From Schmidtea polychroa (lineage: Eukaryota), in assembly GCA_044892525.1 (NCBI GenBank), contig CM097885.1, positions 226,424,001 through 226,488,000 of the forward strand: a stretch of 64,000 nucleotides of DNA. The letters are read 5' to 3'. Shown here piece after piece: positions 12,899 through 37,373 of the stretch. Both the position numbers and the translations under genes were made by a program. Within the stretch, counting starts at the first letter, position 1. Each line of letters starts with the position of its first letter. The notes beneath the pieces are model-generated. The model was given only the letters and a program-made list of their open reading frames with translations, made no database searches and was not told where the DNA came from.

Positions 12899-12936
<38 letters not shown>

Positions 12937-14272: not shown

Positions 14273-14276
14273 TTAA
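14273..14276. other. 4-bp target-site duplication TTAA of element 2 (partner 44424-44427)
   Basis: ttaa|TGTTG at the left end and CAACA|ttaa at the right end; the 5-bp extension does not match. Confidence 0.85.
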
Positions 14277-17706: not shown

Positions 17707-18277
17707 GAACTTCCCCGTAAAAAGTCTTCGTTCTTTGAATTGACCTGAACATTATCTGATAACATTTTACCTTGTCTCTTTTCCCGTTGTCGTGGACTTT
17801 ATTGTATAGGTGTTAGATATATTTGTGTGATAATCTTAATAATAAACCATTTTTGTCTGCATACGTTTTTTCTTGTGCCCATCTTAAGACAGTTGAGTTG
17901 AAATTGGTAAATGGTATTGAGAGTCATAAAATCATGAGGAGCATTAGTCAGTTGGTAAACTCAGCTAGAAATATTGCGATGGGGCGACAGAATGAGTAGA
18001 CGTAAGTCCTTCTATCGGCAGTCAGGGTTGGGAAGTCGAGGCCTCAGTAAGGAGTAGTCCGAAGGAGCTGGCTCACCTGCTTACTGGCGTCTCGCCGGCA
18101 TAGCACAGTTCCAACGTGAAGCAATTCACGGGTGCTATGTTGGAGTGTAAGTTATGTACGGGTCCCGCTCGGCGATGACCAAATAAATGAGGGGCGAAAT
18201 CGAGGTGGCATTCATCCTCTAGACTAAAGTTACACTAGAAAGGGGTCATCCGAGTAGTGTACCCGCAACATAATTTT

Positions 18278-18295
18278 TGGGGGCTCAGCCGGGAT
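18278..18295 (+). promoter_or_regulatory. Primer-binding site, tRNA-Pro type
   Basis: TGGGGGCTCAGCCGGGAT lies 7 nt after the 5' LTR and matches the MLV tRNA-Pro PBS TGGGGGCTCGTCCGGGAT at 16/18. Confidence 0.8.
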
Positions 18296-18595
18296 TTAGA
18301 GTGAAATTTCCATTGACTAGTGTAAACTGGATAAGGATGTTATTGAGTGAATTTCTGTCGAATAGAGTGAACTCACCGGGGATCAGTGATTTCAATGGGT
18401 TAGCGAGTGCAAATTGACTAATGCTTATCGAATCTTATTATAAATCACGAATAGAAAATAATAAAATTAAAAATATAAATAAAGCAAATTTAATGATGGA
18501 GAAATAAGATAAAAGCAAAATAATGATAACGAGTTAGAAAAGAGAATGTTTGACGAAACGAAGTCATATATTACTGAAACATTTTTTTTATAGAC

Positions 18596-19081
18596 ATGAC
18601 GGAATTCGTAGACCAGATACAACAACTAATCAACTTCATAAACATCGAGAATGACTCCCTTAAAACGCTGACACAAAAAAGAGAAAGAATTAACATCATA
18701 CTACTTCAAGCAATCGGGCAAACACCAGTCGTCCCCAACCACATGTTATTAGCCACAGGACTAAGTCACCCAGAGGGGAAGGTAAACCCGGAAACCGTGT
18801 ATCAATGGTATCAAGAGAGATTGAACCACCCAGCATTAAATCTTGATTATCAACGTATAAAAGATCCACTAAATACCATGTCAGATACAATCGAGCGGAA
18901 AATACAAGAAAAACTGACTCTACTACGAACTTGTCGTGCTTGTAAACTTCGTCCTATTCGCGTACTGTTTTTGCCGTGTGGACACCTCAGTCACTGCGAA
19001 GAATGTGTGAACGATTTAAAACGATGTACGATATGTAGGCATGAAATAAAAGAAACTCATATGGTTTATTATGGTGAATAA
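18596..19081 (+). CDS. IAP/MYLIP-type C3HC4 RING protein without BIR (161 aa), putative E3 ligase
   Basis: C-terminal CRACKLRPIRVLFLPCGHLSHCEECVNDLKRCTICRHEI. An acceptor-like TTTTTTTATAG ends 2 nt before the ATG. Confidence 0.85.
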   Translation: MTEFVDQIQQLINFINIENDSLKTLTQKRERINIILLQAIGQTPVVPNHMLLATGLSHPEGKVNPETVYQWYQERLNHPALNLDYQRIKDPLNTMSDTIERKIQEKLTLLRTCRACKLRPIRVLFLPCGHLSHCEECVNDLKRCTICRHEIKETHMVYYGE

Positions 19082-19499: not shown

Positions 19500-19690
19500 C
19501 GTCGTGCGTTTTGAGCAAGGGGGGAAAGGGGACACACTCCCGAGCGGTAAAGATTAAGTCGACAAATTAAAAATAGACAGAGAAAATGGTAATCTTGAGT
19601 AAAAGAAGAAAGAGAGAAGTAGAAGCATGCAGAGTAAAGAATGTTAAAGCCGAGCTGTAAAATAATCCAGCCGGTCAAGGAAACGAAAAC

Positions 19691-20017
19691 TGAGCTGTTG
19701 TATAGTGCCAGCCAGTCGTAAGATCGAGTTGTCGAATAGTCCAACCGATCAGAAGGAGGAAGATTGAGCTGTTGAATAGTGCCAGCCAGTCGTAAGATCG
19801 AGTTGTCGAATAGTCCAACCGATCAGAAGGAGGAAGATTGAGCTGTTGAATAGTGCCAGCCAGTCGTAAGATCGAGTTGTCGAATAGTCCAACCGATCAG
19901 AAGGAGGAAGATTGAGCTGTTGAATAGTGCCAGCCAGTCGTAAGATCGAGTTGTCGAATAGTCCAACCGATCAGAAGGAAGAAGATTGAGCTGTTGAATA
20001 GTGCCAGCCAGTCGTAA
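19691..20017. repeat. 74-bp tandem repeat, 4.4 copies, in the element 2 leader
   Basis: TGAGCTGTTG starts at 19691, 19765, 19839, 19913 and 19987; the units are nearly identical. Confidence 0.95.
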
Positions 20018-21382
20018 AGGCCTAGAAAAGCGAGAGATAGCAGTTAAGCTACAATGAGCTAATATCTGAATTAATAGAGAAAGGGAATATCAAAGCTAGC
20101 TAGAAACAAATTGAATGTAATTACGGAAATTTGAGTTTAGAGAGAAAATAAACGAGCTCGTGGAAAAGATAATAAGATTATAATGAAAAAGGAAAGGGAA
20201 GAAGGAAACGAATTAAAGAGATAATGGAAAATAAAGAATAGGCGAAACGATGATAATGAGTAAAGAGGAAAGTAACCAACTAATTAAAGGGATCCCAGTG
20301 AGGTAGAGAAACTCTACGGAATATTTTTTTGGTTAAACCGGGAAAATGCATTTTATTGGTTCCAGAGTAGAACCGAGCGTAATAATAGTAAATATGAAAA
20401 GTAAAATAGCGACAACAGCGCAAAAGGAATAGGAAAACGAAGGGGGGTAATAAGCAGAGACCGACAACGACCTATTTTTACTATAATTGATAACGAATAG
20501 ATAATTATTACGACTTGATAGATAATTGTTACTACCCCATATAGATAATTTAAAATCGACGAAAAATTCGGGCTGATGGGAGATTATAACCCGCGGAAGT
20601 AATTGCATAAAAAAAATAGGGGAAGCATAAACAGAACCTAAAAGGTGTCTGTGTTCGAACGTTGTTGAAAGAATGATGAAGTCGTGTAAGCAAATGCAAC
20701 ACGAGATCATTTTTTCATTTTAGATATCAAACCAATCCAGTCAACCAAGACAATCCAGAACCTGCACAAAAGGAATTCGAAGAAATCGACAATCGACCAA
20801 GAATAAATTCATTCAGAACCCGCACCGAGAGACACAGCAACCGGAAGACTCCAGAACGGAAGAAGATACAGATAGCGATATCTCCAACTTCGAACGAATC
20901 ATCGATATATTCAACCTTATAATATTAGCAGCCATCTGTCAAGGACTAGTGAATCTCCTCAGAATCACAGTAGCAGATCCATACAGAATATTTATCGAAG
21001 GAAACACAATCAGAACCGAACTCGTCCAATTCAATAGCCGCTAATTACCAAGAAGCGTAAGAAAGGAATCACGGATAAACCCAATCTTAGATCTTCAAGT
21101 AAGCCAGGAGACGTATTATTTTCAGGAGACGAATTACAACAACTCAAAAGAGGACGATCTATTAAACAGCAAAGAGGAATATCGCAAGGATCAAGAAGAA
21201 CCAATCAAGTACCTATATTTGACCAAGAAAATCTCGGATACACCCCTAGTCGATCTCGAAGCAGAGAAAGTCTGTCCGACATCACTAATAGTTTAGCAAC
21301 GTCAACCGAGGAATTATCAGCCCAAAGTTTAGTCACATCGTTAGACAATTTAAAAGAAACAGACGAATCTAGAACACCAATC

Positions 21383-24300
21383 ATGACGAATGTCGTAAAA
21401 ACCGACGAGTATAAAGAGAAGTTCAGAGGAGAACCGTTCAACGGAAATGCAAACAAGCTAGCACCGTTCATAACTAATTTTGAAGTTTATATCACTGTGT
21501 GTGGATGGACACCCGAAGCAATTAGTAAAAGGATGCCGTTGTTTTTGTGCGATAGCGCATTAGAAGTATATTTAGAAGCTAAAGAGAGAGATACGAAATT
21601 AGAAAAGTGGGAAGATATCAAAACATTCCTGAAGAAAACCTTCGGAGCCAGTAAGCCAGTCAACCAGGCGTTGGGCGAACTAGCAAATAGGAAACAAAGA
21701 GTAAACGAATCGATAACATTATACGCCAGTGAATTGCGGAGATTAGCGAAGAAAGCAATGAATGGAAAATTACCCGAAGAAAATCTGATCGGTTATTTCA
21801 TAGAGGGATTACGCCGAGAAGAAGTAAGAGCCTCAGTAGGTTGTCAAATGTGCAAAACATTAGAGGAAGCCATAGATTGGGCTACAAGATGCGAGCTCCA
21901 CCTTCCAGCTCAAATGAATATTATGCAAGAGGAGGGAAGGATAGCGACAGCAATAGCGAAAGCGGATAACGGAGATAACAACAATCAAGAACTGAAAATG
22001 AATCAATTTATACCAGGAGCGCACCAAATTTTCAAACCACCACAAGGACGATCAAATGGGAATAATGGTAATCGTAACAACCTAAATAATGAGAACAATT
22101 TCAATAATCGACGAAATATGAACGATAACAAGCAGTGCCGAACATGCGGTAAACCAGGACACTGGGACAGAGATTGCTATAGAAATTCAAATTGTAATCG
22201 TTGCGGACGGCGTGGACATACCGAAAATGTATGCCAATTAAGAGGTTGTTTTAACTGTGGTCAGCCAGGTCACATCTCCAGAGATTGCCGAGAAAGGGGC
22301 CAACAACAACGACCACCACCGCGAAATAATAATTATATGGCGAATCCGCAAAGACAAAACAACCCTAGCGAAGGAAAACAAATGAACGTTATGCAGGAAA
22401 TCTCGCAGATGAAACAGATGATGCAACAAATGATGAGACCGAGACCGGAATCAGCACCACAACAAACCCAGAATATACGTATGATGAGGAGTACCGAAAA
22501 TCTCAACAATTATGAAGTGCATCAACATGTACAAGAATGGCAAAGACTACAGGCCGAGGAAGAGAGGATAAAACAAGAACGCAACCAACAACGACAAGAA
22601 CAACCATTGCGAATTAATATGATGAAGTTAGTAAAAGACATGAAAAGCCAGTATTGCTACAATTACGGGAAAAACCCAAGGGTAGTACCCATGACTGAAC
22701 CAGAAAAGGTAACAGAAACAACAACGGAAATGAAAACAGAGAATTCAACCACGATTTTAAAAGGAAACCAGAGAATTCAGAAAATATTCTGGAAAAAGAT
22801 AAAAGATAAAATCGAAAAAGAACATAATAAAGCGAAAGCCGAGACAGAAGATGAAAATAACAAGAGCAAGGAACAAACCAGTCAATTAAACCACCAAATG
22901 CTACAAGAATTAGAATCAGAAGAAACAACGATATTCGAAAGAAAGAAACTAAAGAGAGTACCAAGGATGAGAAATTTGCAAATCAATATGATGAAAAGGA
23001 CAAAAGATGTAGCATCGTCAGACGAAGAAGAAGATTATGTAAGTAGTTTGGGGGGAGAAATACTACAGCTAAACGAAATAAGCGAACCTCCAAAAGGGGA
23101 AATCAAAGAGGAAGAAAGCGAAAGCGAGATAACAAGTGGAAGTGAAGACGAGGATATCGAAATAAAGTTGAGAAAAGCAAGGGAGGAAGCGATAAAACAG
23201 GTAGCCGAAATACTCCCGGCGGTAGTGAGAAACCAAGAGTTCATCGACGTAATATCATTCAGGCGATTCGTGCAAAAAGTGATGAAATTGGAAAGAAACG
23301 AGAAAGATTTAATACCAAACGAGGAAAAATCAATTATAAAAAAGTATATGGAAAAAATGAAGCAGGCAGATACCACGCGGTATGTAATAAAAATCGGAAC
23401 GAGTAGAGGACTTGAAAGAATGTGGATAAAAAATACAGTCACCGACGAACTTTTCGATTGGATACGAGAACATTTGGGAGATTCGAGAAAGAAAGAATAT
23501 CTGTATCAATACCAAGGAGAACAGATCAAACCAGACATGCACTTAGTAGATGCACTAATATGGCCAGGAGAAACGCAAATACTGAAGTTGCATAAAGAAA
23601 AACAACCAGCCAACCTTTACGATTGGGCTAAAGACGCCAAGGCAGAATATGATTTTAATATCAAATTGAAATTAGAACAAATAAAACAATGTACTCTGAG
23701 ACGAAACCTGGATAAGCTGATCAAAAAAATTCAAGAACAAGTAGAAGACAACTGGGATTTACTCATCACCAGACGAGCCCCAGCCATGTACGAACTAATG
23801 ACCCAATTGCGAGATACAGAAATGCTCCGGATGAGTGATTGGAGAACCATAAATTTGATCCACAAATATGGAAGGTTAAAAGAAACCCAGCCACAGAGGT
23901 TGGAAATAACCATATGGTTACCGAACGAGGAAAAACGACGAATAAAAATGAGCAATCAGAGTACAGTGGATGACTTGGTATCAAAAATAAACCAAGAGAT
24001 AACAGAAAAGGTACGTAGCGAAAGTATTGATGGTATGGTGGATGATGTAGTCATGATGTACGATAAAATAATATTACGAGCGGAGGACGACACCTCGTTA
24101 AGCGAAATGGGTATGTGGGACAATCATCAGATAATCAGGATAGTACCAATGGATGAATTTCGAACAAGAGATGTAACCTATCAAAAAGAAATACGAGACC
24201 GGATGAAAACGTTATATCAAAAATCTACGGAAATAATTAAAATCCACCAACAATGGTTAAAAGAAAAAGAACTACAAGGAAAAATCACGAAACTAAGCAC

Positions 24301-26428
24301 CAGATCCTGCAGACGAACCCCATGGGAAAGAGTGTGGAATGCAGAAAATAAGGAATGGGAAATCCGGAAAGGGATCTTCGTAGAAACAGACATTGGTGAG
24401 ACAGAAAGTGAATCGGAGGAAGAAGAAGAGGAACCTCCAGAATATGAAGAGGAAGCAAGGGTACAGACATCAGATGACGAAGGCGAGACGGATGTCACAT
24501 CAGAAAGCGAAAATGAAGCGAGACATATTCATGCAATGAGGAAAAAGGAACGTGAATATGCTGATATGGACGGCGAGGAAGCAATAGAAGCAAGAGAGCG
24601 AGAAGAGAAAGAAAGATATAAACAATTAGGCGATATTTTAGCAATGGGAGCGAAAAATCAAAAACGCCAGGTAGTAGCGTTGGCTAATATCATCTTAAAA
24701 ACATCAGAGAACATCCACAATCTGAGGGGAATGGCAAAGGCAATAGAGGAATACCGGCAATATAATGAATGGTATCCAGAACAGCTAGAACAAATTATTC
24801 GAAAATGGAGAAATCAGGAATGGGCACAAGACACTCAGGAGAGGTATCACATCCGAATCAAGTATCCGGACAAGAGCATCGAGGAACTAGAGGTGCATCC
24901 AACAACAAAGATTAGAGAATTAAAAAAGAAATTAGCATATGAAACTCCATTCCATCTGCAACTATTCGGAAAATCACTAGACGATAATGCAGACGTCGGA
25001 ATAACACCCATGAGATTGGAAGAGACAAATGTGTTAACAATGGCAGAAACGTTGGGAAAGCCGTTAAAAAGGAAAAGTAAAATTACTAAACTAACAAAAG
25101 GCAGTTTGAGTACTCCAAGTCCGAACAAAGCACCAAGTAAATCTAATGAAACTGAAGAAGTTGAAGAGATAATCCTGGAAGATAGTGACGATGAACCAGG
25201 AGAAAGATCACCGCTATTAGTGAGATGGCCGACAGGAGCCGAAATGTGGACTAATAACCAGCCATCAACGAGTTATCAACAACCAACGAAACTGAACATC
25301 AAAGAAATCATCGACAATACTACGGAAACCGAAACGGATGAACAATTCCAGAAGCAAAGAGAACCAACGAAAGTAACACCAGAAGGTCAAACCGATAAAA
25401 TAATAGACGAATGGAATGAGTGGCTAAGAAATAACGATAGCTCATTACCCAGAACGGACAACGAAAGAAATCCGAATTACGAAAATACCAGAGAAGCCGG
25501 AACGATGATGGAAAAACGGGCAAAAGGAAGACCTAAGAAACAAGGAGAAAAGTCTGAGTTCAAAACCAAAGAACAATTAAAGCAAGAACAAGGGCAAGTT
25601 CGATTAGAAAAATTGGATAAAATAGTATGGGATCTAAAGGAAGCCCAACCAACGACCGAAAGAGGAGAAAAATGGATACGAGAATTGATCAAAGATATGT
25701 TAATAATAACAAACCCACAACTTAGACGTTCGTGGCAACGGAAAGTAGCCAGCACGGAAGCTAGACAATTATGGCACACCATTTCGGGGATAATCCCAAA
25801 GTTAATCAAAGAGAAAACGAAAACCACCAAAACGGATTGGGACGAAACAAAGAGAGTGATTGAGCAGCTCACGACAAATGCAAATGATGACGAACATCAT
25901 CTAGTGGTAATCACTTATTTGATGTATAATTTGATGGGACTAGCTGCGAGGAAAATACCAAATAAACAGTTTGCAAATCATGTGGAAATGACCGTTTCAA
26001 TCATAGAGAATACTATTGAACCACATATTATTCGTGCCGGAGGATGGAAAAGACTTATACAAGCGCCACGAAAAAATGAGCAAGAAAGGTCGATGCAAGT
26101 TAGATTGAAGAAGTTGTTGAATGAACTAGAATGGGAACTACCCATGAAAGACCCAGCAAGCCGAAAAGCATCGATAAATTCGTTAATGATGACTATGATG
26201 ATATGGATGTTGTGCACAAGTGGAGCAACAGGTTTTACCATCTACGATTGTGATAATATGATCACCCAACAAATTAGACATAGTAAGAACAAAAGTTACT
26301 TACCATGTATATCAAGAATCAGATTTCATCAGAACGCAAGCAAGGGAATGCGTGGTATCAAAAAAGGTACTCGCATATTACTGTGGACAATATTCGTATT
26401 CGACTCTTATACTACCTGGTCTGGATAA
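21383..26428 (+). CDS. gag: Gag polyprotein: capsid, 3 CCHC, 3 ubiquitin-like folds, Bcl-2-like domain, signal peptide and start of the envelope glycoprotein
   Basis: Capsid motif FRGEPFNGN...ANRKQRVNESITLYASELRRLA. CCHC knuckles at 22136-22288. Ubl-like segments at 23378-23597, 23897-24148 and 24842-25042. BH2-like IEPHIIRAGGWKRLI. Signal peptide ending GATG|FTIYDC. The frame is open from 21038. Confidence 0.93.
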   Translation: MTNVVKTDEYKEKFRGEPFNGNANKLAPFITNFEVYITVCGWTPEAISKRMPLFLCDSALEVYLEAKERDTKLEKWEDIKTFLKKTFGASKPVNQALGELANRKQRVNESITLYASELRRLAKKAMNGKLPEENLIGYFIEGLRREEVRASVGCQMCKTLEEAIDWATRCELHLPAQMNIMQEEGRIATAIAKADNGDNNNQELKMNQFIPGAHQIFKPPQGRSNGNNGNRNNLNNENNFNNRRNMNDNKQCRTCGKPGHWDRDCYRNSNCNRCGRRGHTENVCQLRGCFNCGQPGHISRDCRERGQQQRPPPRNNNYMANPQRQNNPSEGKQMNVMQEISQMKQMMQQMMRPRPESAPQQTQNIRMMRSTENLNNYEVHQHVQEWQRLQAEEERIKQERNQQRQEQPLRINMMKLVKDMKSQYCYNYGKNPRVVPMTEPEKVTETTTEMKTENSTTILKGNQRIQKIFWKKIKDKIEKEHNKAKAETEDENNKSKEQTSQLNHQMLQELESEETTIFERKKLKRVPRMRNLQINMMKRTKDVASSDEEEDYVSSLGGEILQLNEISEPPKGEIKEEESESEITSGSEDEDIEIKLRKAREEAIKQVAEILPAVVRNQEFIDVISFRRFVQKVMKLERNEKDLIPNEEKSIIKKYMEKMKQADTTRYVIKIGTSRGLERMWIKNTVTDELFDWIREHLGDSRKKEYLYQYQGEQIKPDMHLVDALIWPGETQILKLHKEKQPANLYDWAKDAKAEYDFNIKLKLEQIKQCTLRRNLDKLIKKIQEQVEDNWDLLITRRAPAMYELMTQLRDTEMLRMSDWRTINLIHKYGRLKETQPQRLEITIWLPNEEKRRIKMSNQSTVDDLVSKINQEITEKVRSESIDGMVDDVVMMYDKIILRAEDDTSLSEMGMWDNHQIIRIVPMDEFRTRDVTYQKEIRDRMKTLYQKSTEIIKIHQQWLKEKELQGKITKLSTRSCRRTPWERVWNAENKEWEIRKGIFVETDIGETESESEEEEEEPPEYEEEARVQTSDDEGETDVTSESENEARHIHAMRKKEREYADMDGEEAIEAREREEKERYKQLGDILAMGAKNQKRQVVALANIILKTSENIHNLRGMAKAIEEYRQYNEWYPEQLEQIIRKWRNQEWAQDTQERYHIRIKYPDKSIEELEVHPTTKIRELKKKLAYETPFHLQLFGKSLDDNADVGITPMRLEETNVLTMAETLGKPLKRKSKITKLTKGSLSTPSPNKAPSKSNETEEVEEIILEDSDDEPGERSPLLVRWPTGAEMWTNNQPSTSYQQPTKLNIKEIIDNTTETETDEQFQKQREPTKVTPEGQTDKIIDEWNEWLRNNDSSLPRTDNERNPNYENTREAGTMMEKRAKGRPKKQGEKSEFKTKEQLKQEQGQVRLEKLDKIVWDLKEAQPTTERGEKWIRELIKDMLIITNPQLRRSWQRKVASTEARQLWHTISGIIPKLIKEKTKTTKTDWDETKRVIEQLTTNANDDEHHLVVITYLMYNLMGLAARKIPNKQFANHVEMTVSIIENTIEPHIIRAGGWKRLIQAPRKNEQERSMQVRLKKLLNELEWELPMKDPASRKASINSLMMTMMIWMLCTSGATGFTIYDCDNMITQQIRHSKNKSYLPCISRIRFHQNASKGMRGIKKGTRILLWTIFVFDSYTTWSG

Positions 26429-28030
26429 AGAAATCGTATCAATACAACGAGAGGACTGTAAAGAGCTATTTAGAACCGGAGCGCTAAAAATGCATAACGG
26501 AGTGACGATTCACGGACAAACTGGAATGATTAAAACCGAAAGCGTTTATGTATCCGGAAAAGTAAAATCATCAGATGGGTCATGTAACGGAGGTACGTAT
26601 ACGATCCGAGGCGAGGTAATATCGGGAGTAGTAGTGATCGAGTCTTACACGGTCGAATTAAAAGAATACGAAGCGCAATTTGACGCAAATAATTACCAAA
26701 TGAAGACCAACCCAGCGTGTAGAGCTACAGAAAACGTATGTAGGACAGGAGTATCAACTATAATCTATGAAGCTAATACCCAAAAATGCCGACTCCAACT
26801 GTTAAAAAGTGCTTTGTTCAATGAAGTAAAAGGAGAAATATATGAGAACGAGAACGACGAGGATGGAAACGACAGAGTGAGAATGCGAAATGGAAAACCA
26901 ATGCCACCATCTCCCAGAGAAAAGAGACTTTCAACGCAGAAGACACCAACAGCATTAATCACGGACGATCCAGATCTAGGTATGAGATTTATCAAAGAGA
27001 AAGAAACCACCAAATGTGACAGTATAGTATATAAAACCAATTACGCAGGTATCTATATGTCGAGACAAATAATCGATAGAGCAGTGGGAAAGATAGCAAC
27101 GGAGGACGTAAAACTATACTTATATGCAAATAATAAAATGGATTTTCTATTTCATCGCGGACAAACGACCTTGCAAAAAGTATATTACGATCTGATACAA
27201 AACGATTGTTCATTGAATAAAGAAATATTGAAAACAAAGCTAGCTATTGCGATAACACACCCAGATAACACGATGCCATCACTCCCATTACCAGACGGAC
27301 ATTTTGGTAGAATGGTAGGAGAAGTGATGTACACATACCAGTGTACCAAGACGTATGCACGAATGCCAGAAAAATCCATACTACCCGAAAAGAGATGTGC
27401 AAACGAATTAGAAATCCGTTATAAGGGACAAAATCGATTCGTCCAACCAGTCACGAGAATTATGAATCCAGTGGGTTTCTACCCAAATCTCTTTAACTGT
27501 TCTAATGCATACGGACCTTTATACGAAAGACCCGATGGGAAATGGATGATGCTACCGGGAAAAACCATATCCGAGGAACCCAAGAAATTTGGATTAATAG
27601 AACTCGCCACAGAGCTGGATTTCAAACCTATAGACGTGTCAAACGGTGGTATGTATTCCCCAGAAGATCTAGAAACAGCACGACTTAACGTACTCTTCCC
27701 AGCCATACGAGAATCCATTTTGTCAAATATGGTTACAATAACGGGGGGAACAAATTATCAATCAGGCCCGAATTACGAGCTGCTACTATCGCCAGACCAT
27801 TTTCAACAAGCCACATCAAACATGATGAAAGCAATGTGGGGAAGATTCTTAGTTTTTGGACAAATGATGGCCGGAATACTGGGGATCATACTCATAATTC
27901 AGATAGTCAGGGTAATACTAACACAAATGTTAGCTTGTTTTGATATATACAAGCGAGAAAAGAAAGTAAATTGGAAAATGATAGTAGGCTTTTTACCATT
28001 TTTAGCTAAAACCATGGTATTACATGGTCA
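26168..28030 (+). other. env: Chuvirus-G/herpes gB-like class III fusion glycoprotein (split by a frame change near 26260)
   Basis: Signal peptide + YDC; C-V-x6-YYCG; DGSCNGG; NNKMDFL; C.L.KEIL; GEVMYTYQC; RCANEL...FVQPVTRI...C...GPLY; NGGMY; TM FLVFGQMMAGILGIILIIQIVRVIL. Confidence 0.75.
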
Positions 28031-31000
28031 CTCAAAAGACATCCATCGGATAAAGCGATTGATTAAAATCTTAACAAAGATTAAAGGAACAAACGAGGAA
28101 GTAGGTAGACGATTCCGAAAAACCATGTACGATGAAGCAACAAGAAGACAATTGAAAAAGAACAAGCCAAAATTCTTGGACCGATTTAGAAGCCAATCAT
28201 CTAACAGCGATAGTGACGACGATGATAACGGGAACGATAAATGTTTATATCCAAACAGAAACCCAAACGAAAAACCAATGGAAACGGCACCATATTGGGA
28301 AAAGGAAAAGACAAATACCTGGATCGCCAATGGAAGCTATATACCGCCAGATGTCGTGGGACCACAGGCAGCTTTGACCATGACACAAAACATGTATCCG
28401 CAATTACCGAGTCAACCCGGTATGCATTATATGCCAACACGACGTACCAAAAGTGTAGATCAAGCAGATGACGTAAGAACAATAGCAGCGATGAGCTTAC
28501 CTGGAGGTCCAGCAGTAACAGTCATGATTCAAATCAATGGTAAAGAAACCAATGCTATGATAGACACAGGAGCTAATGTATCAGCGATAGCGATTAATCA
28601 AATCCCCAGTAAGCACTGGAAAGATATCGAATCAACAACAATTCACATCATAGCATGTAGTAAAGAAACAGTGGACGTGGTCGGAAGATGGTGGACTACA
28701 TTGAGATACCAGGATAACGAAATCGAAACGTATTTGGCAGTAATACCAAACCTTAGCGTACCATGCATAATCGGAACGGACCTGATGCCGGAATTATTAA
28801 AAGAAGTGGTGATCGATTTAACAACCATGTGTTTAAAAGACAAAACAGGCAGAATATGCAAAATGAATGCCATAATCAGATGTCCAGAGAAAATTGTGGT
28901 ACCAGCAAAATCACAGATGATTTGTCAGATAAAAGTGGATACGGGTATGGAAGGAGAAGTTATCTTTGAACCAAGCAAGTCATTTGAAAAGCGACGAGAG
29001 TTACCACTCGCAAGGGAAATAATCACAATAAACCAAGAAGGAGTGATACCGCTCAACATCACGAATTTCGAAGAGGAAGACAAAATCATTTATGAGAACG
29101 AAAAATTGGGAAGATTGACCCCAATGATGGACATAGAATTACCGAAAGTGACCAACGAGATGATCAAAGATGATGAATTATGGACAATAGATAGTATGTT
29201 GTTGACGAATGATGAAAAGAAAAAATTGCACCGATTGTTGGTAGAATATAAAGATATATTCGCCATCTCAGATTTAGACTTGGGTACATGCGATGTTACC
29301 CTACATGCAATACCCCTCATAGATGAAACTCCAATTGCATTAAGACCATACAAGCTAGCAGAAATGCAAAAAGAAATAGCCGAAGCAGAAGTACAAAAGA
29401 TGCTAGACGCAAAAGTAATCGAACCGAGTTGCTCACCCTGGCAATTCCCAGTGGTCATGGTAAAAAAGAAAGATGGCACCCAACGATTCTGTATCGATTA
29501 TCGGAAGTTAAACGCAGTAACCAAGAGAGATACCTATCCATTGCCGGACATCAATGAAATGTTATTGATGTTGCAAGGGGCAGCATATTTTACTTCTTTA
29601 GATCTAAAAAGTGGATACTGGCAGATTAAAGTCAAAGATGAGGACAAAGAGAAAACAGCTTTCACGCTGGGACGAGATCTATATCAGTTCAGAAAAATGC
29701 CATTCGGACTGACCAACGCACCAGCATCATTTCAAAGGTGTATGAACTTCGTCACGCATGGAATCAAACAATGTATGGTATATATTGATGATTTGCTAAT
29801 CTATTCAGCGACATTCGAACAACATCTGGAGGATATCCGAAATGTATTTATTAGATTAAGACAATGGAAACTCAAGCTCAAACCTTCGAAATGCGATTGG
29901 GCAAAGGAAAAAGTCACGTTTTTAGGACACATAGTGTCAGCTAAAGGAAAGGAGCCAGACCCAAGAAACATTGAGAAAATAAAAACATGTCCAGCACCGA
30001 AAACTGTCACCCAAGTTCAGGAATTTCTAGGATTATGCGGATACTATCGCAAATTTATCAAAAATTATGCAGGAATTGCAAAACCAATCCAGGAATTAGT
30101 AAAGAAGGACATTTCGTTCATTTGGGGGAAGGAACAACAAGAGGCGTTCGAAACGCTGAGAGATAAACTAATCGAAGCACCTATCCTCGTACACCCAGAT
30201 TTTAAGAAGCCATTTCTATTGGCAACGGATGCAAGCGGGTACGCGGCAGGCGCGATTCTGGGACAATTAGACGATGAAGGAAAAGAGAGAGTAATCGGGT
30301 ATTACAGTCGAACATTCAAAAAGCACGAAAAGAACTATTCGGTAACAGAACGAGAAGCATTGGCTATAATACAAGCTATCAAACACTTCCGATATTTACT
30401 ATGGGGACATGAGATATGCATAACCACAGATCATCAACCATTAGTGTGGTTAGGGCAACATAAAGAAGCGTCCAGTAGACTGATGAGATGGGCCATGCAA
30501 TTGCAAGAATACTCCCCATTTATAAAATTCAAAGCAGGAAGAGCAAATGCCAACGCCGACTGTATGTCAAGATTTATTTTTCCAGATTTGGTGGATTCAG
30601 AAATGCAACGCATATGCTTAATAGTAGCGGAAGATTTGGATTTCTGTCAATTGCGAAAAGACCAACAAGGGGACGCGGAATTAAAACAAATTATCGATTA
30701 TGTAAAAACCGGAAAGACGGATGCATATGCGAAAGACCCAAAATTAAAAGAACATATGGATAAACACCGACACCGATATATTATAGAAAAAGATTGGTTG
30801 CTGATAATGGATGGAGAGAAGAGGTTAATGTGTATACCGGAAAACCGACGAAAAGAGTTACTAACGCAATATCACGATGGGAGATTGGGAGGACATATGT
30901 CATCGAAAAAGACGTTAGCAAGAATGAAACAGAAATATTTTTGGCCTACGTTAACTGAAGATGTAACCGAATGGGTAAAAAATTGTCTAACTTGTGCAAC

Positions 31001-34000
31001 CAGGAAGAATACTGGATCGAAATGGAAAGCACCTTTAACGCCAATGCCAGTACCAATAGAACCAATGACAATGATATCAATGGATGTAGTCGGTCCATTG
31101 CCAGAATCGGATAAAGGAAACGTTTATATTCTAGTGATTACAGACTTTCTCACGAAATTTCCAGAAGCATTCGCGATGCCAGACCAAAAAGCTAAAACAA
31201 TCGCAAAAATTTTGGTAGAAGAGATATGTTGCCGATATGGAACACCAAAACAAATATTAACCGATCAGGGAACTAATTTTATGAGTGAGATAATGAGCGA
31301 AGTAACAAATTACTTCAAAATAGCAAAACTAAGAACATCTCCATATCACCCTCAAACCAATGGGATGACGGAAAGATTTAATGGAACGCTTATACAAATG
31401 TTATCAAACTACGTCGACCGTCACCAACGAGATTGGGACGAATATATAAACCTATGTCTTATGGCATACAGAATGTCGATTCACGCATCAACAAAAATGA
31501 GCCCATTCAAATTAATGTACGGAAGAGAATGTAATATGCCAATGGACCTGGAATACCAACCACCGATATCGCAGTATATGGAGATCGACGATTATGTTAC
31601 GAAATTCAAGGAAAGGATGCAAGAAATTTGGGAAACTGCGGGATTAAATATCAAGTTCTACCAGGAAAGTTATAAAGATTTACACGATCGAAAGAAAAAC
31701 GTGAAGCAACATACGTTTCAAACAGGTGATTGGGTAATGATAGAAACCCCGGAATTAATTCCAGGAACCACAAGAAAATTACAACGGAACGGAAAAGGGC
31801 CATATGAGATCCTATTTGTAGGCGAAACCAACGTTAGAGTGAAGTTGATAAATAATCCATTCACCAGGCCAATATACGTAAACGTGGCACGATGTAAATC
31901 AATTCCAAAAACCGCCACCAGTCAACCGGAAGGTCGAACATTAACCACACGTTCGCAAACATACAGAATGAACATGATGCAACAACTCGCAGAACCTATC
32001 CCTGGACGATCGGGCATACAACCATCGGAAGCGGAAAAAATCGTACGAGAGGTAAAGATAAAATTACCCGGATGGGCAAAAGATCGATTAGATTTCGAAA
32101 TATTAGGAGGATTATTGACGATGATCGAAAACTATGCAAATAGAGAAAGGACACACCCGTTATTGCGAGTAGTTAAAAGTCAATGGCCAATATTATTTAC
32201 AATAACGGATCATTATGGAGACACACCATTACACAAACTCATGAAAGTAGGTAACAACGAGCAAATACTAGAAACAATAGAAGCATTTCACGACTGCAAG
32301 CGATCAACAGAACAAGAAAACAACCAAGGTTACACACCATTAATGATAGCAGCAAACAGAGGCAAAACCAAAGACATTATAACCGCATTACTTGATACGG
32401 GATCAAAAATAACTACACAAGACCACGAGCGGAAAAATGCACTACATCATGCTATCGAAGGGAAAAGTACCGAGGCGTTCACGTCATTGATGGAACTACT
32501 ATCATATGAGGACAATCGAGAAGTCGGAAACATGTATGAGGGATTGTTAACAGCGATCAAAGAAAAACTGACGACAATTACCGGAATATTAATTACATGG
32601 AGAAATCCAATTCAAAACGATTATATGATCAACGTAAACGAAGCGTTCACGAAAGGAGAGAACACGCTGATGAGAGAAGCTATGAAAGGACATCATTTAT
32701 TCGAAATTCCGAATCAATTACTAGAACGAGGGATAAAATTCACAAATCATAAAGATGAACAGTTAGCAAAAAAGCGAATCGACACATTCGAAAAATCAAT
32801 ATTCCAATTTACTAGCCAAGTACGAAATAAATATTGGGAAACGGTAAGTGTGTTATATATGATGGACACAATGAATAACATCCGCGAGAATTACCTGGAT
32901 ATTATCCAAATACTTACAGCAGAGGAACGAATCAATAATCCAAACGGAAAGAAAACGAAAATAAGGTATGAGAAACCGAGGGAATCAAAGTCAACAACGA
33001 ACCAAACGGTCACAAACCACGTCATTGAAACAAAATCAATGAGTATAGATCAAGAGGCAATAATACGCAAAGCAAAAGAAGTGTTCTTTGAGGAAATGCT
33101 AGAGCTGCCAGACGAAATAATATTGTCCAAAATAATAAAAGCCGTACACACATACGCAAGAGATCAAACCACGGGTTTAGATATCGGGAAAATCAAAACC
33201 TTCTTGCCTCGAGCATTTACGATGGTAACAAAGGATTCCCGAACACCTCTACAACAAGCAATATTAGCTGCAAAAGAGAATAGAGCAATAACGATCATGA
33301 GAATCCTTGGGGAGATGGGCGAGGAAACCAACACGAAAAATGAACAAGGTGAAACCGCCATGATGTATGCAGCTATAACGAAAATACACCCAAAAACACT
33401 CCACATCCTACATCAATCAGGATCGAAACTAGACGAAAGGTCCAATGAAGGAAATTCCACCTTGGACTGGGCAACCATACAACTAAACTTAGAAATGATC
33501 AGATTTATTTGCAAAAATGCGACAAAAGAAGAAGTTGAAAATATGTGCAAAAACACATCTCAGTTTCAATGGAATACGGTACGGAAAAATCTAGAAGCAA
33601 TGAAATTATTATTAACCTGGAGAGTACCACAAAATAATAAATATGCGATAAATGTAAACGAATTCTACGAAAACGGAGAAAATGCGATGGTAAAGAATAC
33701 CCTAACTAAGGGGGGGACGCCTAAAATTATTTTAATAGTATTAAATAGAGAAGACCTAAAATTCACGCAAAATCAGAACGAGCAACAACGAATTGGGAAA
33801 CATCGTCGTATGCAATTGAGAGAGTTAGTTAAAGAATGGAATAGAAAGAGACATGCTGCAACGGGTAGAAAAGAGTTTGAATTCGAAGCAAAATTAGCAA
33901 GAAACAGAGTGCTAACAGCATATCGCAGATTATTGAACGATATAAATGTCGAGGACGACATTTTAAATGACAGCGGGGGAGATAAACACGATGACAATGA

Positions 34001-35186
34001 TGGAAAAGGCCGGAAAGAGGATAAAGGGAAAAGAGAACCGGAAGAGGATAAACCGGAAAACAAGGATTCGGATACGAAAAGAGAGGGAAACAGGCCGGGA
34101 ACCAAGACCAAAGAGGAGGAAAAATCGAATAATGGAAAACAGAGGGTATGCCTACCTTTCACTAACAAAGAAATAGAGACAAATATGATATTAATGATAA
34201 TTATGCTTACCATGATAGAGTTAGTAACAGCTCAGGGAGGGACGAGAACGATAAAAGAAACCAAAGAAGCGGAGAATCAAGATAGCAAAGAGGATGAACT
34301 AAAGCAAGAAAAGAAAAAGCAAGCACAAGAGCAGCAGTGGGATTTAAAGGAAGAATGGGACTTAAAGGAAAGGTGCATACTAGGAAGATGCATGTCTAGA
34401 GCGTATCAGAAACTAGTACTGATAAATGAGGACACAGAACCAATAACAGAAGTAAGAATACAAGAAGCATACCGAAATCGAGACGGGAAGAGAATAACGA
34501 ACGTCAAAGGAAAAGAGGTACACCTAGGAAAAGGTGGTGAGGTAGTAATAACGCAGCTCCAACCTAGAAAAGAGCACAAAGTCTGTATTTCAAGATTAGG
34601 ACCAGGTGAGAGATGCCATCAATATGTGACACAGCAGCAGCCGCCGAAAGAATACACGGTTTGTATCTGGAGGAATGAATCAAAAAGAGAATGCCGACGA
34701 TACCCGGGGAAAAGAGGAAAGAAAAGAAAAAACCACGACGAAAAGGACGAAGGGGGAAAGCACAAGAAAACCGGCGAGGAAGCTCAGGACAACTATGTTT
34801 CGGAGGAAGAAATGGAAAAAATACAAAAGATGGCAAAGGAGGGTATGAACGAGGAAATAGCAAGAATACGAGAGATGATGGAAGGAAATGGCAAAAAAGG
34901 AAACGAGAAAAGTACAGAAGCGATATCAACATTAACAAACAAGGAAAAACCAGAGAGTATAAGCGTGAAGCAGATGATGTGGATCAGTGGGATAATAATA
35001 ACAGGGGCATTCCTAATCATAACGGGGGGAACAATAAAAATAATTAAAGATAAACGACATCGCGGAGAACTAGAGATGACCCAAATCAGAAATTTCCAAC
35101 ATCGAGTGAAACGACCAAGTGATATCAAACAAGAACAGTGGGTGGAGGCCTGGAACGCTCAGCGCCCTCCAAACTCACGTATATAG
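26352..35186 (+). CDS. pol: Env-Pol polyprotein: class III fusion glycoprotein body, TM, aspartic protease, RT, RNase H, integrase, 2 ankyrin modules, second type I membrane protein
   Basis: The frame is open from 26262. PR AMIDTGANVS (DTG 28563). RT YIDD (29781). RNase H LATDASG...EREALA...TDHQPL. Integrase H-H-C-C zinc site, DVVGPL, TDQG, ERFNGTL and GPYEI. Ankyrin GDTPLH/GYTPLM/KNALHHA and SRTPLQ/GETAMM/GNSTLD. Confidence 0.95.
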   Translation: MVSKKVLAYYCGQYSYSTLILPGLDKEIVSIQREDCKELFRTGALKMHNGVTIHGQTGMIKTESVYVSGKVKSSDGSCNGGTYTIRGEVISGVVVIESYTVELKEYEAQFDANNYQMKTNPACRATENVCRTGVSTIIYEANTQKCRLQLLKSALFNEVKGEIYENENDEDGNDRVRMRNGKPMPPSPREKRLSTQKTPTALITDDPDLGMRFIKEKETTKCDSIVYKTNYAGIYMSRQIIDRAVGKIATEDVKLYLYANNKMDFLFHRGQTTLQKVYYDLIQNDCSLNKEILKTKLAIAITHPDNTMPSLPLPDGHFGRMVGEVMYTYQCTKTYARMPEKSILPEKRCANELEIRYKGQNRFVQPVTRIMNPVGFYPNLFNCSNAYGPLYERPDGKWMMLPGKTISEEPKKFGLIELATELDFKPIDVSNGGMYSPEDLETARLNVLFPAIRESILSNMVTITGGTNYQSGPNYELLLSPDHFQQATSNMMKAMWGRFLVFGQMMAGILGIILIIQIVRVILTQMLACFDIYKREKKVNWKMIVGFLPFLAKTMVLHGHSKDIHRIKRLIKILTKIKGTNEEVGRRFRKTMYDEATRRQLKKNKPKFLDRFRSQSSNSDSDDDDNGNDKCLYPNRNPNEKPMETAPYWEKEKTNTWIANGSYIPPDVVGPQAALTMTQNMYPQLPSQPGMHYMPTRRTKSVDQADDVRTIAAMSLPGGPAVTVMIQINGKETNAMIDTGANVSAIAINQIPSKHWKDIESTTIHIIACSKETVDVVGRWWTTLRYQDNEIETYLAVIPNLSVPCIIGTDLMPELLKEVVIDLTTMCLKDKTGRICKMNAIIRCPEKIVVPAKSQMICQIKVDTGMEGEVIFEPSKSFEKRRELPLAREIITINQEGVIPLNITNFEEEDKIIYENEKLGRLTPMMDIELPKVTNEMIKDDELWTIDSMLLTNDEKKKLHRLLVEYKDIFAISDLDLGTCDVTLHAIPLIDETPIALRPYKLAEMQKEIAEAEVQKMLDAKVIEPSCSPWQFPVVMVKKKDGTQRFCIDYRKLNAVTKRDTYPLPDINEMLLMLQGAAYFTSLDLKSGYWQIKVKDEDKEKTAFTLGRDLYQFRKMPFGLTNAPASFQRCMNFVTHGIKQCMVYIDDLLIYSATFEQHLEDIRNVFIRLRQWKLKLKPSKCDWAKEKVTFLGHIVSAKGKEPDPRNIEKIKTCPAPKTVTQVQEFLGLCGYYRKFIKNYAGIAKPIQELVKKDISFIWGKEQQEAFETLRDKLIEAPILVHPDFKKPFLLATDASGYAAGAILGQLDDEGKERVIGYYSRTFKKHEKNYSVTEREALAIIQAIKHFRYLLWGHEICITTDHQPLVWLGQHKEASSRLMRWAMQLQEYSPFIKFKAGRANANADCMSRFIFPDLVDSEMQRICLIVAEDLDFCQLRKDQQGDAELKQIIDYVKTGKTDAYAKDPKLKEHMDKHRHRYIIEKDWLLIMDGEKRLMCIPENRRKELLTQYHDGRLGGHMSSKKTLARMKQKYFWPTLTEDVTEWVKNCLTCATRKNTGSKWKAPLTPMPVPIEPMTMISMDVVGPLPESDKGNVYILVITDFLTKFPEAFAMPDQKAKTIAKILVEEICCRYGTPKQILTDQGTNFMSEIMSEVTNYFKIAKLRTSPYHPQTNGMTERFNGTLIQMLSNYVDRHQRDWDEYINLCLMAYRMSIHASTKMSPFKLMYGRECNMPMDLEYQPPISQYMEIDDYVTKFKERMQEIWETAGLNIKFYQESYKDLHDRKKNVKQHTFQTGDWVMIETPELIPGTTRKLQRNGKGPYEILFVGETNVRVKLINNPFTRPIYVNVARCKSIPKTATSQPEGRTLTTRSQTYRMNMMQQLAEPIPGRSGIQPSEAEKIVREVKIKLPGWAKDRLDFEILGGLLTMIENYANRERTHPLLRVVKSQWPILFTITDHYGDTPLHKLMKVGNNEQILETIEAFHDCKRSTEQENNQGYTPLMIAANRGKTKDIITALLDTGSKITTQDHERKNALHHAIEGKSTEAFTSLMELLSYEDNREVGNMYEGLLTAIKEKLTTITGILITWRNPIQNDYMINVNEAFTKGENTLMREAMKGHHLFEIPNQLLERGIKFTNHKDEQLAKKRIDTFEKSIFQFTSQVRNKYWETVSVLYMMDTMNNIRENYLDIIQILTAEERINNPNGKKTKIRYEKPRESKSTTNQTVTNHVIETKSMSIDQEAIIRKAKEVFFEEMLELPDEIILSKIIKAVHTYARDQTTGLDIGKIKTFLPRAFTMVTKDSRTPLQQAILAAKENRAITIMRILGEMGEETNTKNEQGETAMMYAAITKIHPKTLHILHQSGSKLDERSNEGNSTLDWATIQLNLEMIRFICKNATKEEVENMCKNTSQFQWNTVRKNLEAMKLLLTWRVPQNNKYAINVNEFYENGENAMVKNTLTKGGTPKIILIVLNREDLKFTQNQNEQQRIGKHRRMQLRELVKEWNRKRHAATGRKEFEFEAKLARNRVLTAYRRLLNDINVEDDILNDSGGDKHDDNDGKGRKEDKGKREPEEDKPENKDSDTKREGNRPGTKTKEEEKSNNGKQRVCLPFTNKEIETNMILMIIMLTMIELVTAQGGTRTIKETKEAENQDSKEDELKQEKKKQAQEQQWDLKEEWDLKERCILGRCMSRAYQKLVLINEDTEPITEVRIQEAYRNRDGKRITNVKGKEVHLGKGGEVVITQLQPRKEHKVCISRLGPGERCHQYVTQQQPPKEYTVCIWRNESKRECRRYPGKRGKKRKNHDEKDEGGKHKKTGEEAQDNYVSEEEMEKIQKMAKEGMNEEIARIREMMEGNGKKGNEKSTEAISTLTNKEKPESISVKQMMWISGIIITGAFLIITGGTIKIIKDKRHRGELEMTQIRNFQHRVKRPSDIKQEQWVEAWNAQRPPNSRI

Positions 35187-35346
35187 AAAGGAATATGACT
35201 GTATATAATTGTAAAAAGTAAGTATATCTTATGTATATAACAGTACTATATCTTTATATAAGCGCGGTATCAATATTATACAATAACGGGAATCATAAAA
35301 TGACATTAAATTTAAATAAGAGTTGAAAAGTGTATATAAATTAAGA

Positions 35347-35706
35347 ATGGATCAAGGAAATAACGAAATGAACCACAATACAGTAACTGAAGAATTATGG
35401 AAGCAACAATGTGCCGTATTAGCACAATTAGTGTCCAATTTGCAAGAACAAGGATTGACGATGCACAGAAACCTAATCGAGAGTATGAATAGAGGATTTA
35501 GTTATTTGAAAATAATTGAAGACCAGAGGTTGAAAATCGAACAAATGCAAAGAGAGATAGAGAGGATAACCCAATATAGCCGTAGACAGGAAATCGAGCT
35601 AGACAGAATGATGGAGGAAGCAGAACAGACAGAAATAGAAGACTGGTCGGAATGGCTAATGAATAGAGAGGAGAGCGGACACGAAGCCGACTCTTCCGAA
35701 CCCTAA
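35347..35706 (+). CDS. Small coiled-coil accessory protein
   Basis: ATG at 35347 within the track ORF 35323-35706; heptad-like Q/E/R-rich; homologue in element 1. Confidence 0.65.
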   Translation: MDQGNNEMNHNTVTEELWKQQCAVLAQLVSNLQEQGLTMHRNLIESMNRGFSYLKIIEDQRLKIEQMQREIERITQYSRRQEIELDRMMEEAEQTEIEDWSEWLMNREESGHEADSSEP

Positions 35707-35791
35707 ACCAAACCTAGCTTAAAATGTAAATAATTGTAAATAAAATATCGAACCTGTATCGATAAGAACTATTTGTACATATAATTATAGA

Positions 35792-37180
35792 ATGGATAAA
35801 CGACAAAGAGAAGAGTTCAGAGAGATTGTCGAGCAAGTCCGAAAATCTACAACGATCAGAATACACAAACATGTTATGTGCGGAATATGTGAAAAGTTGT
35901 TAAAGGAACCTCACCAAACGCAATGTGGATGCAGAGTATGTAAAGAATGTATCAGTGAAGCAATAAAGAATAGACCACAGAGGTGCCCGGTGTGTAAAGA
36001 GACACTAATATCGAGTTTAGAAGACACTAACGAGGATAAAGCCGCAGTGAAAGACATGTTAAACACCAATCTGGGATGTAAAAATGCCCCATGCGAATGG
36101 AAAGGAGTAATATGGAAGGTAGTACAACATATGGGAGAATGTATGTACAGAATTGGCCAGTGTGAAAGGTGCCATAAAACCATTCGAGCAAGCGAAGAAA
36201 AAGAGCATCAAAGGCAGTGTGAAGAGAGATTAGAAAGATGTGAACACTGTGGAGAAATAGATACGTGGAAAAATCTCACCCTCAAACATCACAATGTCCA
36301 AGAGGAGAGAGTATGTGCAGAGTTCAGTGGGGAATGCCCAAACGGATGTAACCAAGGGGAAATAATGAAGGTGGCACAGCATCTAAGGGAATGCGAAAAG
36401 AAAAGAATGACATGTGTACTAGGTAGATGGGGTTGTCAGAAACTACTACACCGAGGTGAGTTACCACATCATTTAGTAGAAAATGCTTCAACCCACGCAG
36501 AAATGTGGTCGACTGCGTTACAAGAAAGCGAAGAGAAAGTAAAACAAATGGAGATAGAGATAACATCGTTGAAAGTGTTAGTCAAAGAACTACTAGAAGA
36601 AAGGGAAGCGTTAGAAGAAGCCCGAGCAAACATAAAGATGCAAATAAACCGAATAGAAATCAGTAATAATCAGGCCAAGGAGCTACATCAGAAAATACGG
36701 GAAATAAATCTAAATGAGATAACCCCAACAGCACCCTACATATGGAAAATAACGGGAGTAAAAGAAAGAATACGAAAAGCAAAAACCGGAGAAGAGACAA
36801 GAATAACAAGTCCTGCATTCCATTCTTGGAAAAATGGGTACAAAATGAAAATGAAGATATATCCCAACGGGGACGGAACCGGAGTAGATACGCACTTTTC
36901 GATTTTCTTTCTGTTATGTAAAGGGGAATACGACGAAATAATAGAGTGGCCGTTCCAGGCAAAAATCGATATTGCACTAATGAATGACCGAAGCATCCAC
37001 GAACAAAGCTTCAAGACAACTGGAAACCAAATGTGTTACCAGAGACCTACGGCAGAAGAAGGATCAGCAACAGGAGCACCTACGTTCATCCTACAACAAA
37101 AAGTAGAAGATATGGCAAGAAATGACACGGTGTATATCAAGATGACCGTGAGGAAAGAGGAGAAGGGTAGAACGGAGTAA
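35792..37180 (+). CDS. TRAF: Full-length intronless TRAF-family protein (RING - TRAF zinc fingers - coiled coil - MATH)
   Basis: RING CGICEKLLKEPHQTQCGCRVCKEC...CPVC; tandem TRAF-type zinc fingers; MATH motifs YIWKI, SPAF, GYKM, YPNGDG, HFSIF, KGEYD, EWPF, YQRP. Confidence 0.93.
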   Translation: MDKRQREEFREIVEQVRKSTTIRIHKHVMCGICEKLLKEPHQTQCGCRVCKECISEAIKNRPQRCPVCKETLISSLEDTNEDKAAVKDMLNTNLGCKNAPCEWKGVIWKVVQHMGECMYRIGQCERCHKTIRASEEKEHQRQCEERLERCEHCGEIDTWKNLTLKHHNVQEERVCAEFSGECPNGCNQGEIMKVAQHLRECEKKRMTCVLGRWGCQKLLHRGELPHHLVENASTHAEMWSTALQESEEKVKQMEIEITSLKVLVKELLEEREALEEARANIKMQINRIEISNNQAKELHQKIREINLNEITPTAPYIWKITGVKERIRKAKTGEETRITSPAFHSWKNGYKMKMKIYPNGDGTGVDTHFSIFFLLCKGEYDEIIEWPFQAKIDIALMNDRSIHEQSFKTTGNQMCYQRPTAEEGSATGAPTFILQQKVEDMARNDTVYIKMTVRKEEKGRTE

Positions 37181-37373
37181 CCAATCGAATAATGTTGTAT
37201 ATAATAATCTGTATATATCGGTGTATATAACCAATAAAATATTATATAATAATAGTATGAAAACCCTAAATACGAAAACCCAAAAATGATGCGAAAATTT
37301 CCAAAGAAACAGTAGATAATGAATAAATTCCTTTTTCATAATAAAAAGATTAATCGATGTCTATGATTTAGAG

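Follow-up and report, generated by a model that had tools for sequence, protein, structure and literature searches.

In a 64,000-nucleotide (nt) window of the Schmidtea polychroa genome (contig CM097885.1 of assembly GCA_044892525.1, forward-strand positions 226,424,001 to 226,488,000; all positions below count from the first nucleotide of this window) lies a retrotransposon with long terminal repeats (LTRs) that is a young, multicopy Ty3/gypsy element of the Burro type, as judged by the published description of Burro. In its family gag, an envelope gene (env) and pol form a single open reading frame (ORF), in which the envelope protein (Env) is followed by a transmembrane helix (TM1) and the aspartic protease (PR), and which closes with a second signal-like segment, ectodomain and transmembrane helix (TM2; table 1). 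By profile and predicted fold, Env is a class III fusogen related to herpesvirus glycoprotein B (gB) and chuvirus G. We consider it probable, judging from sequence, that the polyprotein is threaded co-translationally through the membrane of the endoplasmic reticulum (ER) and cut by signal peptidase together with the element's own PR.

The reading frame of the family and the predicted fold of Env

In the window copy the coding region is divided into two long, overlapping frames, A (21038-26428, 1,796 aa) and B (26262-35186, 2,974 aa). Frame A contains Retrotrans_gag and zinc knuckles, and at its end a signal-like stretch leads into the first conserved Env motif; frame B encodes, without a stop, the glycoprotein body matching PF24664, TM1, PR, reverse transcriptase (RT), RNase H, integrase (IN), and ankyrin repeats. 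A first-pass annotation of the window had reported signal and glycoprotein motifs at the end of the gag frame and the glycoprotein body, TM, and PR together in the following frame, and both are present as described. Its placement of env between gag and PR also stands; the two-frame layout does not, being the result of a 50-nt deletion private to the window copy. All 39 other matches listed in this genome are 49–50 nt longer over the same query, and the 50 nt absent from the window at about 26263 are present in 19/19 copies fetched from these 39. The sequence across the junction is stop-free over 3,651 nt in 17 of the 19 fetched copies, and two overlapping 10-kb stretches that cover the whole ORF are open throughout in six of ten copies. 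A C-terminal query gave 360 candidate matches, 150 of which were scored and counted by hand: the open frame around the match is exactly 4,732 aa long and free of flagged stops for 59 of them, and at least 4,700 aa long for 67. Besides shifting the frame, the lesion deletes one of the 14 conserved cysteines of the ectodomain; the window copy is defective, its frame breaking just after signal 1. A programmed frameshift between gag and env is ruled out as the origin of the split, and because the sibling copies hold one open frame, the family would make one polyprotein.

Constraint was measured from the distinct codon variants between nine copies and the window, as site-corrected ratios that are not tree-based (one of ten copies was dropped as interrupted). 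The nonsynonymous/synonymous ratio is 0.03 in the ectodomain, 0.02 in RT, and 0.01 in IN, 0.10–0.15 in regions of Gag, and 0.16 in the second membrane protein, and in TM1 and the conserved patch that follows it 0/19 changes are nonsynonymous. Among the copies, the constraint on env equals that on RT. At least three other env-bearing families are present in this genome (L041-L070, L073-L076, and L098-L099), with the same internal signal and TM pattern, and one of them is only about 31% identical over Env-PR.

The class III identity proposed by the first-pass annotation is borne out by sequence profile and by structural comparison. The Pfam model Monjiviricetes_fusion (PF24664) matches frame B with an E value of 1.1e-63. 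The natural env of a sibling copy (L002; 615 aa) was modeled with AlphaFold from 119 sequences with a mean predicted local distance difference test (pLDDT) score of 88.5 and a predicted template modeling (pTM) score of 0.66; the model contains a central helix of 48 residues (311-358). In a Foldseek search of the PDB every listed match of this model is a herpesvirus gB, the best being that of pseudorabies virus (E 6.5e-14), and among viral models the best matches are chu-like and related virus glycoproteins (E 6e-38). Comparison with varicella-zoster virus gB by VIA gives Z 11.2 and a root mean square deviation of 7.9 over 399 residues, and the sequence profile reaches herpesvirus gB weakly, in the core helix (E 1.5e-4). 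Fourteen ectodomain cysteines are kept in 93–100% of the aligned rows. A representative protein search with env gave 837 hits at E <= 0.001, led by long proteins with an internal env, and PR and/or RT profiles follow env in 10 of 21 homologs scanned.

Two observations weigh on the other side: the Foldseek TM-score of the model with gB is only about 0.38, and, against a working fusogen, of two candidate fusion loops placed by inference from the model, the first is aromatic and the second is polar in the element's family. The polar loop favors the alternative that env is kept for a non-fusion role (assembly scaffold, cell–cell contact, or receptor interference) or acts with a partner such as the second protein, much as herpesvirus gB needs gH/gL, a reading that is itself compatible with membrane threading. 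It also gains from the statement in the text of PMC13524379 that how gB-type elements enter cells is not known. We think it unlikely, because in this family the class III architecture is complete, all 14 conserved cysteines are there, the first loop is aromatic, and constraint equals that of RT.

In the homologous long proteins P0001, P0004, P0005, and P0016, env appears to be followed by at least two aspartic-protease domains or motifs. In P0138 (1,000 aa) immunoglobulin (Ig) domains stand N-terminal to the PF24664 glycoprotein, another pairing of an Ig fold with this fusogen.

Predicted membrane topology of the polyprotein

Topology was called from Kyte–Doolittle (KD) hydropathy and conservation, together with a biological hydrophobicity scale. 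The region upstream of env was compared, over all its 30-residue windows, in the window protein and 12 homologs picked for having upstream sequence; in 13/13 of these proteins the most hydrophobic upstream 11-mer sits in the 30 residues before env and small residues follow. In 11 long homologs the uncharged run of TM1 has a median of 21 residues and that of the next hydrophobic patch a median of 10. Within frame B of the window, 19-mers with a KD of 1.6 or more occur only in TM1, signal 2, and TM2. By hydropathy and conservation Env has a type I layout with a signal, an ectodomain, and one TM.

The side of the membrane on which Pol would lie turns on the patch after TM1. Its uncharged run is 9–11 residues in 10 of the 11 long homologs, with Lys/Arg flanking it and a Pro at its center, and net charge is positive on both of its sides, again in 10/11. 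The same patch follows the TM in 93 stand-alone envs of 560–900 aa, whose tails have a median length of 81 aa (132 homologs were surveyed, the remaining rows being dropped for gaps or length), and in the env model it forms two short helices (597-603 and 605-614). We judge from these features that the patch is probably a helix on the cytosolic membrane surface and that a second TM after TM1 is unlikely, the patch being too short to cross; a surface helix here would place PR-RT-IN in the cytosol. It has a KD19 (KD averaged over 19 residues) of 1.0–1.7, shows strong conservation, all changes among copies being synonymous, and in one homolog has a long uncharged run, all of which would suit a dual topology in which the patch is a true second TM in some molecules. 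Env would there be two-pass and Pol lumenal, working Pol would come from molecules of the other topology, and the Env:Pol ratio would be tuned. The short Lys/Arg-bracketed run with its Pro and the two short helices of the model argue against such an arrangement, and PR, RT, and IN in the lumen could not act; we regard it as very improbable.

With the patch on the cytosolic surface, an intact copy would make one polyprotein of about 4,600–4,700 aa. Gag and its extension would be made in the cytosol until signal 1 starts translocation and signal peptidase cuts behind it; the class III ectodomain would then fold in the lumen with seven disulfides, TM1 would halt transfer, leaving the patch at the cytosolic leaflet. 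The enzymes (PR, RT, RNase H, and IN) and the ankyrins would be in the cytosol, carried on the Env tail until the element protease frees itself, and signal 2 would restart translocation to yield another surface protein, small and of type I, with TM2 as its anchor. The expected products are a membrane-concentrated Gag/Pol core carrying its own gB-like fusogen. What the data show directly is the gene order, the single frame of the siblings, the fold, the constraint, and the conserved hydrophobic pattern; the orientation in the membrane, processing by PR and signal peptidase, budding, and fusion are what we infer. Coronavirus pp1a offers a precedent for a chain in which more than 1,600 residues precede the first membrane segment, and polyprotein processing assisted by signal peptidase is established for positive-strand RNA viruses.

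The first-pass annotation had proposed the same self-consistent order, with cytosolic PR/RT/IN and a second signal, ectodomain, and TM; the latter three are present, and the topology is borne out at the level of hydropathy. Its further suggestion, that Pol is tethered to the Env tail, holds insofar as both are in the same frame, and the tether is probably transient because a candidate protease motif lies directly before PR. This short motif recurs at several domain borders, for example, just before PR (28482) and after IN (31968); nine instances were found where about two are expected, a count to be taken as a lead only since the pattern was picked after viewing the sequence.

Several points count against threading. 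The topology derives from hydropathy scales. Signal 1 is Met-rich and below the 19-residue TM threshold, the uncharged run at the patch reaches 29 residues in P0016, and stray stretches with KD19 >= 1.6 lie within Pol in some homologs. The positive-inside rule gave no orientation for TM1, the lumenal side being positive as well (mean +2), and N-glycosylation sites gave none of the enrichment looked for: the ectodomain has one sequon, and homolog ectodomains are no richer than the downstream cytosolic part. Finally, one frame implies Gag:Env:Pol at 1:1:1, which the model leaves unexplained.

This stoichiometry would be eased if Env, with Pol, came mainly from a spliced or subgenomic RNA starting at the Met-rich signal 1, which contains several Met codons, and Gag came from full-length or other spliced RNA. 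Fusion in frame would then chiefly reflect how the genes are encoded, and threading would be confined to the Env-Pol half. Retroviruses and insect errantiviruses as a rule have a separate env RNA. We hold this to be quite unlikely for the present family: a crude scan of the A-rich sequence at 25500-26200 found no acceptor-like AG with a pyrimidine tract, the Gag-Env junction is stop-free both in the 17/19 copies and in homologs with Gag-side sequence such as P0005 (zinc knuckle), and the env-less family described below fuses Gag straight to signal 2 in one frame.

The predicted second surface protein and the env-less satellite family

A closing signal-like segment and TM are also found in two more families of this genome (L071/L072 and L098) and in P0001, P0007, and P0014; the ectodomains of these five related proteins are not obviously alike. 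For the second ectodomain itself Pfam gave nothing over the cut-off, and outside this genome no usable homolog was found in Atlas and none among the longer proteins, which is weak evidence. An AlphaFold model of the homologous region of a relative (six sequences) was poor (pLDDT 41.4); residues 202-294 of this low-confidence model match generic Ig-like sandwiches with Z values reaching 9.1, only slightly above those of many unrelated rows, a hint that the second ectodomain may be an Ig-like sandwich. The second surface protein is apparently undescribed in print.

The 30-kb element is nested inside the 3' LTR of a second element, a multicopy satellite of the Burro type. Alignment of its ORF with a full-length family leaves out env and pol and gives 71% over aa 5-951 and 55% over aa 964-1572; no env or pol match was found in the satellite unit. 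By hand count, 55 of 119 matches at 77% identity or more lie in frames of 1,565–1,580 aa with no flagged stop, none longer, and 7 of 31 matches at 53–56% lie in frames of 4,773–4,802 aa; the satellite is an internal deletion relative to the family with these longer frames. Between its ectodomain and the second one of the 30-kb element there is weak similarity (30% over 73 aa, pairwise E 4e-4). The spread of an env-less family to more than 100 copies favors a non-fusion or partner-dependent role for Env, set against which the satellite may simply borrow Env and Pol in trans.

Taken as a whole, the picture that we put forward tentatively, at slightly less than an even chance, is of enveloped Burro-type elements that derive Gag, a class III fusogen, Pol, and a second surface protein from one polyprotein with four membrane crossings in the manner of flaviviruses, in which Env trimerization would join the protease domains, and that are accompanied by a satellite keeping Gag and the second protein, the latter with its own job in particle spread. 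The second surface protein would here be possibly Ig-like and might serve as attachment protein, fusion partner, or immune decoy.

The element and its relatives

The element measures 30,147 nt from LTR to LTR. Its LTRs, both with TG...CA ends and flanked by TTAA, differ by two mismatches and one 156-nt length difference. The nearest solved structure to RT/RNase H is Ty3 (E 1.9e-89; retroviral RTs 1e-34), and Pfam matches in the element are RVP, Retrotrans_gag, RT_RNaseH_2, and Integrase_H2C2. The order PR-RT-RNase H-IN, the Ty3-like RT, the LTR ends, the target duplication, and the primer-binding site, which we take to be of the tRNA-Pro type, place it in Ty3/gypsy. A BEL/Pao origin (Tas, Anakin) is ruled out by the Ty3-like RT and by the absence of Pao-type protease and Gag profiles among the matches listed at E <= 0.1.

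Table 1. Features of the 30-kb element and of the satellite unit in the window
Feature	Position	Strand	Remarks
Satellite ORF, Gag plus second protein	2882-7600	+	1,572 aa; Gag joined to signal, Cys-hairpin ectodomain, TM
Satellite unit 3' LTR	about 9807-14276, resumes 44423-44992	+	Interrupted by the 30-kb element
5' LTR	14277-18270	+	3,994 nt; TG...CA ends; TTAA target duplication at 14273-14276
Primer-binding-site-like 18-mer	18278-18295	+	
Upstream accessory ORF, IAP-type RING	18578-19081	+	zf-C3HC4_3, E 8.5e-12
Gag and long extension (predicted cytosolic)	21038-26262	+	Retrotrans_gag 21536-21817; zinc knuckles from about 22241; first Met 21383
BCL2-like segment	25826-26047	+	Weak; Pfam E 0.027, under cut-off
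Putative internal signal peptide 1	26174-26233	+	Holds the 11-mer of highest hydrophobicity on the whole Gag side; c-region of small residues
Predicted class III (gB/chuvirus-G-like) ectodomain	26234-27845	+	14 family-conserved Cys; broken in window copy at about 26263
Copy-specific deletion site	26260-26264	+	50 nt shorter than siblings; turns the family's single ORF into two frames
Predicted Env transmembrane helix TM1	27846-27941	+	Core 27864-27920; KD19 2.53
Conserved helix-break-helix patch	27972-28022	+	Only 10 uncharged residues
Env tail/linker (predicted cytosolic)	28023-28505	+	Candidate element-protease site at about 28482-28493
Aspartic protease, in frame of TM1	28521-28796	+	Catalytic motif 28563
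RT / RNase H / integrase zinc finger and core	29460-29936 / 30123-30512 / 30834-31352	+	Whole block 29460-31352
Ankyrin-repeat blocks, two	32256-33506	+	
Putative internal signal peptide 2	34182-34235	+	
Second ectodomain	34236-34973	+	Charged; Cys hairpins
TM2, basic tail (predicted cytosolic), polyprotein stop	34974-35186	+	TM2 34974-35045
Accessory TRAF-like ORF (RING and MATH)	35744-37180	+	
Accessory ORF, signal-like start and TM	39381-39950	+	TM 39762-39818; no Pfam family over cut-off
3' LTR	40274-44423	+	4,150 nt; TTAA at 44424-44427

The TRAF-like ORF, the IAP-type RING ORF, and the BCL2-like segment suggest interference with apoptosis and ubiquitin signaling, as proposed in the text of a 2019 review of Burro (PMC6431247). 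The BCL2-like segment found no match in a PDB sequence search, ubiquitin-like signals in the Gag extension are weak (RA/ubiquitin E 0.04–0.3, under the Pfam cut-off), and neither a dUTPase-like segment between PR and RT nor a BIR domain was matched by single-sequence searches, where the review had used HHpred. The ORF at 39381-39950 is possibly a third membrane protein of the element. Charged, coiled-coil-like accessory ORFs without a Pfam family lie at 35320-35706, 37323-38429, and 38578-39339 (+). Both LTRs contain an ORF (17080-17706 and 43077-43859, +; 208 vs. 260 aa), within which the 156-nt difference falls in frame, the 5' LTR being the shorter, the LTRs being otherwise 99.9% identical. 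The 5' leader holds a tandem 74-nt unit in four to five copies (19651-20020), and beside the insertion lies a host gene exon, a 956-aa frame (49003-51873, +) with RNA polymerase largest-subunit (Rpb1-type) domains.

The novelty of gene order implied by the first-pass annotation falls away: the order is already published, the review's text reporting env in frame between gag and pol for Burro in planarians. Burro/GYPSM1 is there described as over 30 kb with LTRs and one ORF of 4,700–5,100 aa, which encodes Gag with zinc knuckles, a BCL2-like segment, in-frame env, PR-RT-RH-IN, ankyrins, and MATH/TRAF (PMC6431247). The present element shares the length over 30 kb, the multi-kb LTRs (3,994 and 4,150 nt), the giant Gag-first ORF, in-frame env, ankyrins, and MATH/TRAF; the ORF of its siblings, of 4,732 aa, is counted as shared against a Burro length put at about 4,900–5,100 aa, and TRAF is a separate downstream accessory ORF, unlike in Burro/GYPSM1. 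Hits of env to arthropod and fish mononegavirus glycoproteins are common to both. The review links the Burro env to the gypsy/baculovirus-type Env, whereas the fold here tests as class III and gB-like, and its text on Burro mentions no signal peptides, TMs, topology, second membrane protein, or env-less family (PMC6431247).

According to the main text of Chary and Hayashi 2026 (PMC13524379), gB-type env is widespread in Ty3/gypsy and as abundant there as F-type, which does not support the statement of the first-pass annotation that gB-like envs are known mainly from BEL/Pao. The same study reports the order GAG-ENV-POL in gB-type errantiviruses of Platyhelminthes, Nematoda, and Bryozoa, types six Schmidtea elements of 14–18 kb as ENV_HSV, and describes ectodomains flanked by a signal and a TM or by two TMs. 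These HSV/gB-type errantiviruses have in common with our element a Ty3/gypsy pol, an AlphaFold-modeled gB-type env, and env before pol. The words "polyprotein" and "single ORF" do not occur in that main text, where "topology" refers to trees and domain maps only; the figures may show more (PMC13524379).

The glycoproteins of chuviruses and jingchuviruses and the Anakin-type env of BEL/Pao share PF24664, the 14 cysteines, and the post-TM patch with our Env, and differ in being stand-alone with a tail of about 80 aa, whereas here the tail runs on into PR. Herpesvirus gB has the fold in common over about 400 residues and a weak core-helix profile match, and differs in its identity of about 10%, its TM-score, its separate gene, and its need for gH/gL. 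By analogy, the polyproteins of flaviviruses/hepaciviruses, alphaviruses, and coronaviruses also cross the ER membrane several times and are cut by signal peptidase and a viral protease; there is no homology to them, the enzymes here being RT and integrase and the fusogen class III. We found no description of polyprotein threading in retroelements in the literature searched, outside of which lay Grohme 2018, Jurka 2007, Sacco 2022, and the figures and most supplements of PMC13524379, which may bear on it. The four-crossing topology, the second membrane protein, and the satellite of Gag plus second protein are well-supported as additions not found in print.

Gene order in itself teaches nothing new, and the possible weight of these findings lies in the cell biology that the layout implies. 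If the model is true, RT and integrase are synthesized attached to the cytosolic tail of the element's own fusogen and signal peptidase is its second processing enzyme, with concrete, mappable cleavage points. Planarians make this testable, and BURRO1 transcripts, which are under PIWI control, have already been mapped in planarian tissue according to the text of PMC8532177. The model also bears on how gB-type elements enter cells without gH/gL, a question raised in the main text of PMC13524379. A conserved second membrane protein, together with an env-less family that keeps it, is a candidate answer and the most surprising part; if true, a satellite that retains Gag and the second surface protein would mean that this protein has a job of its own in the spread of particles.

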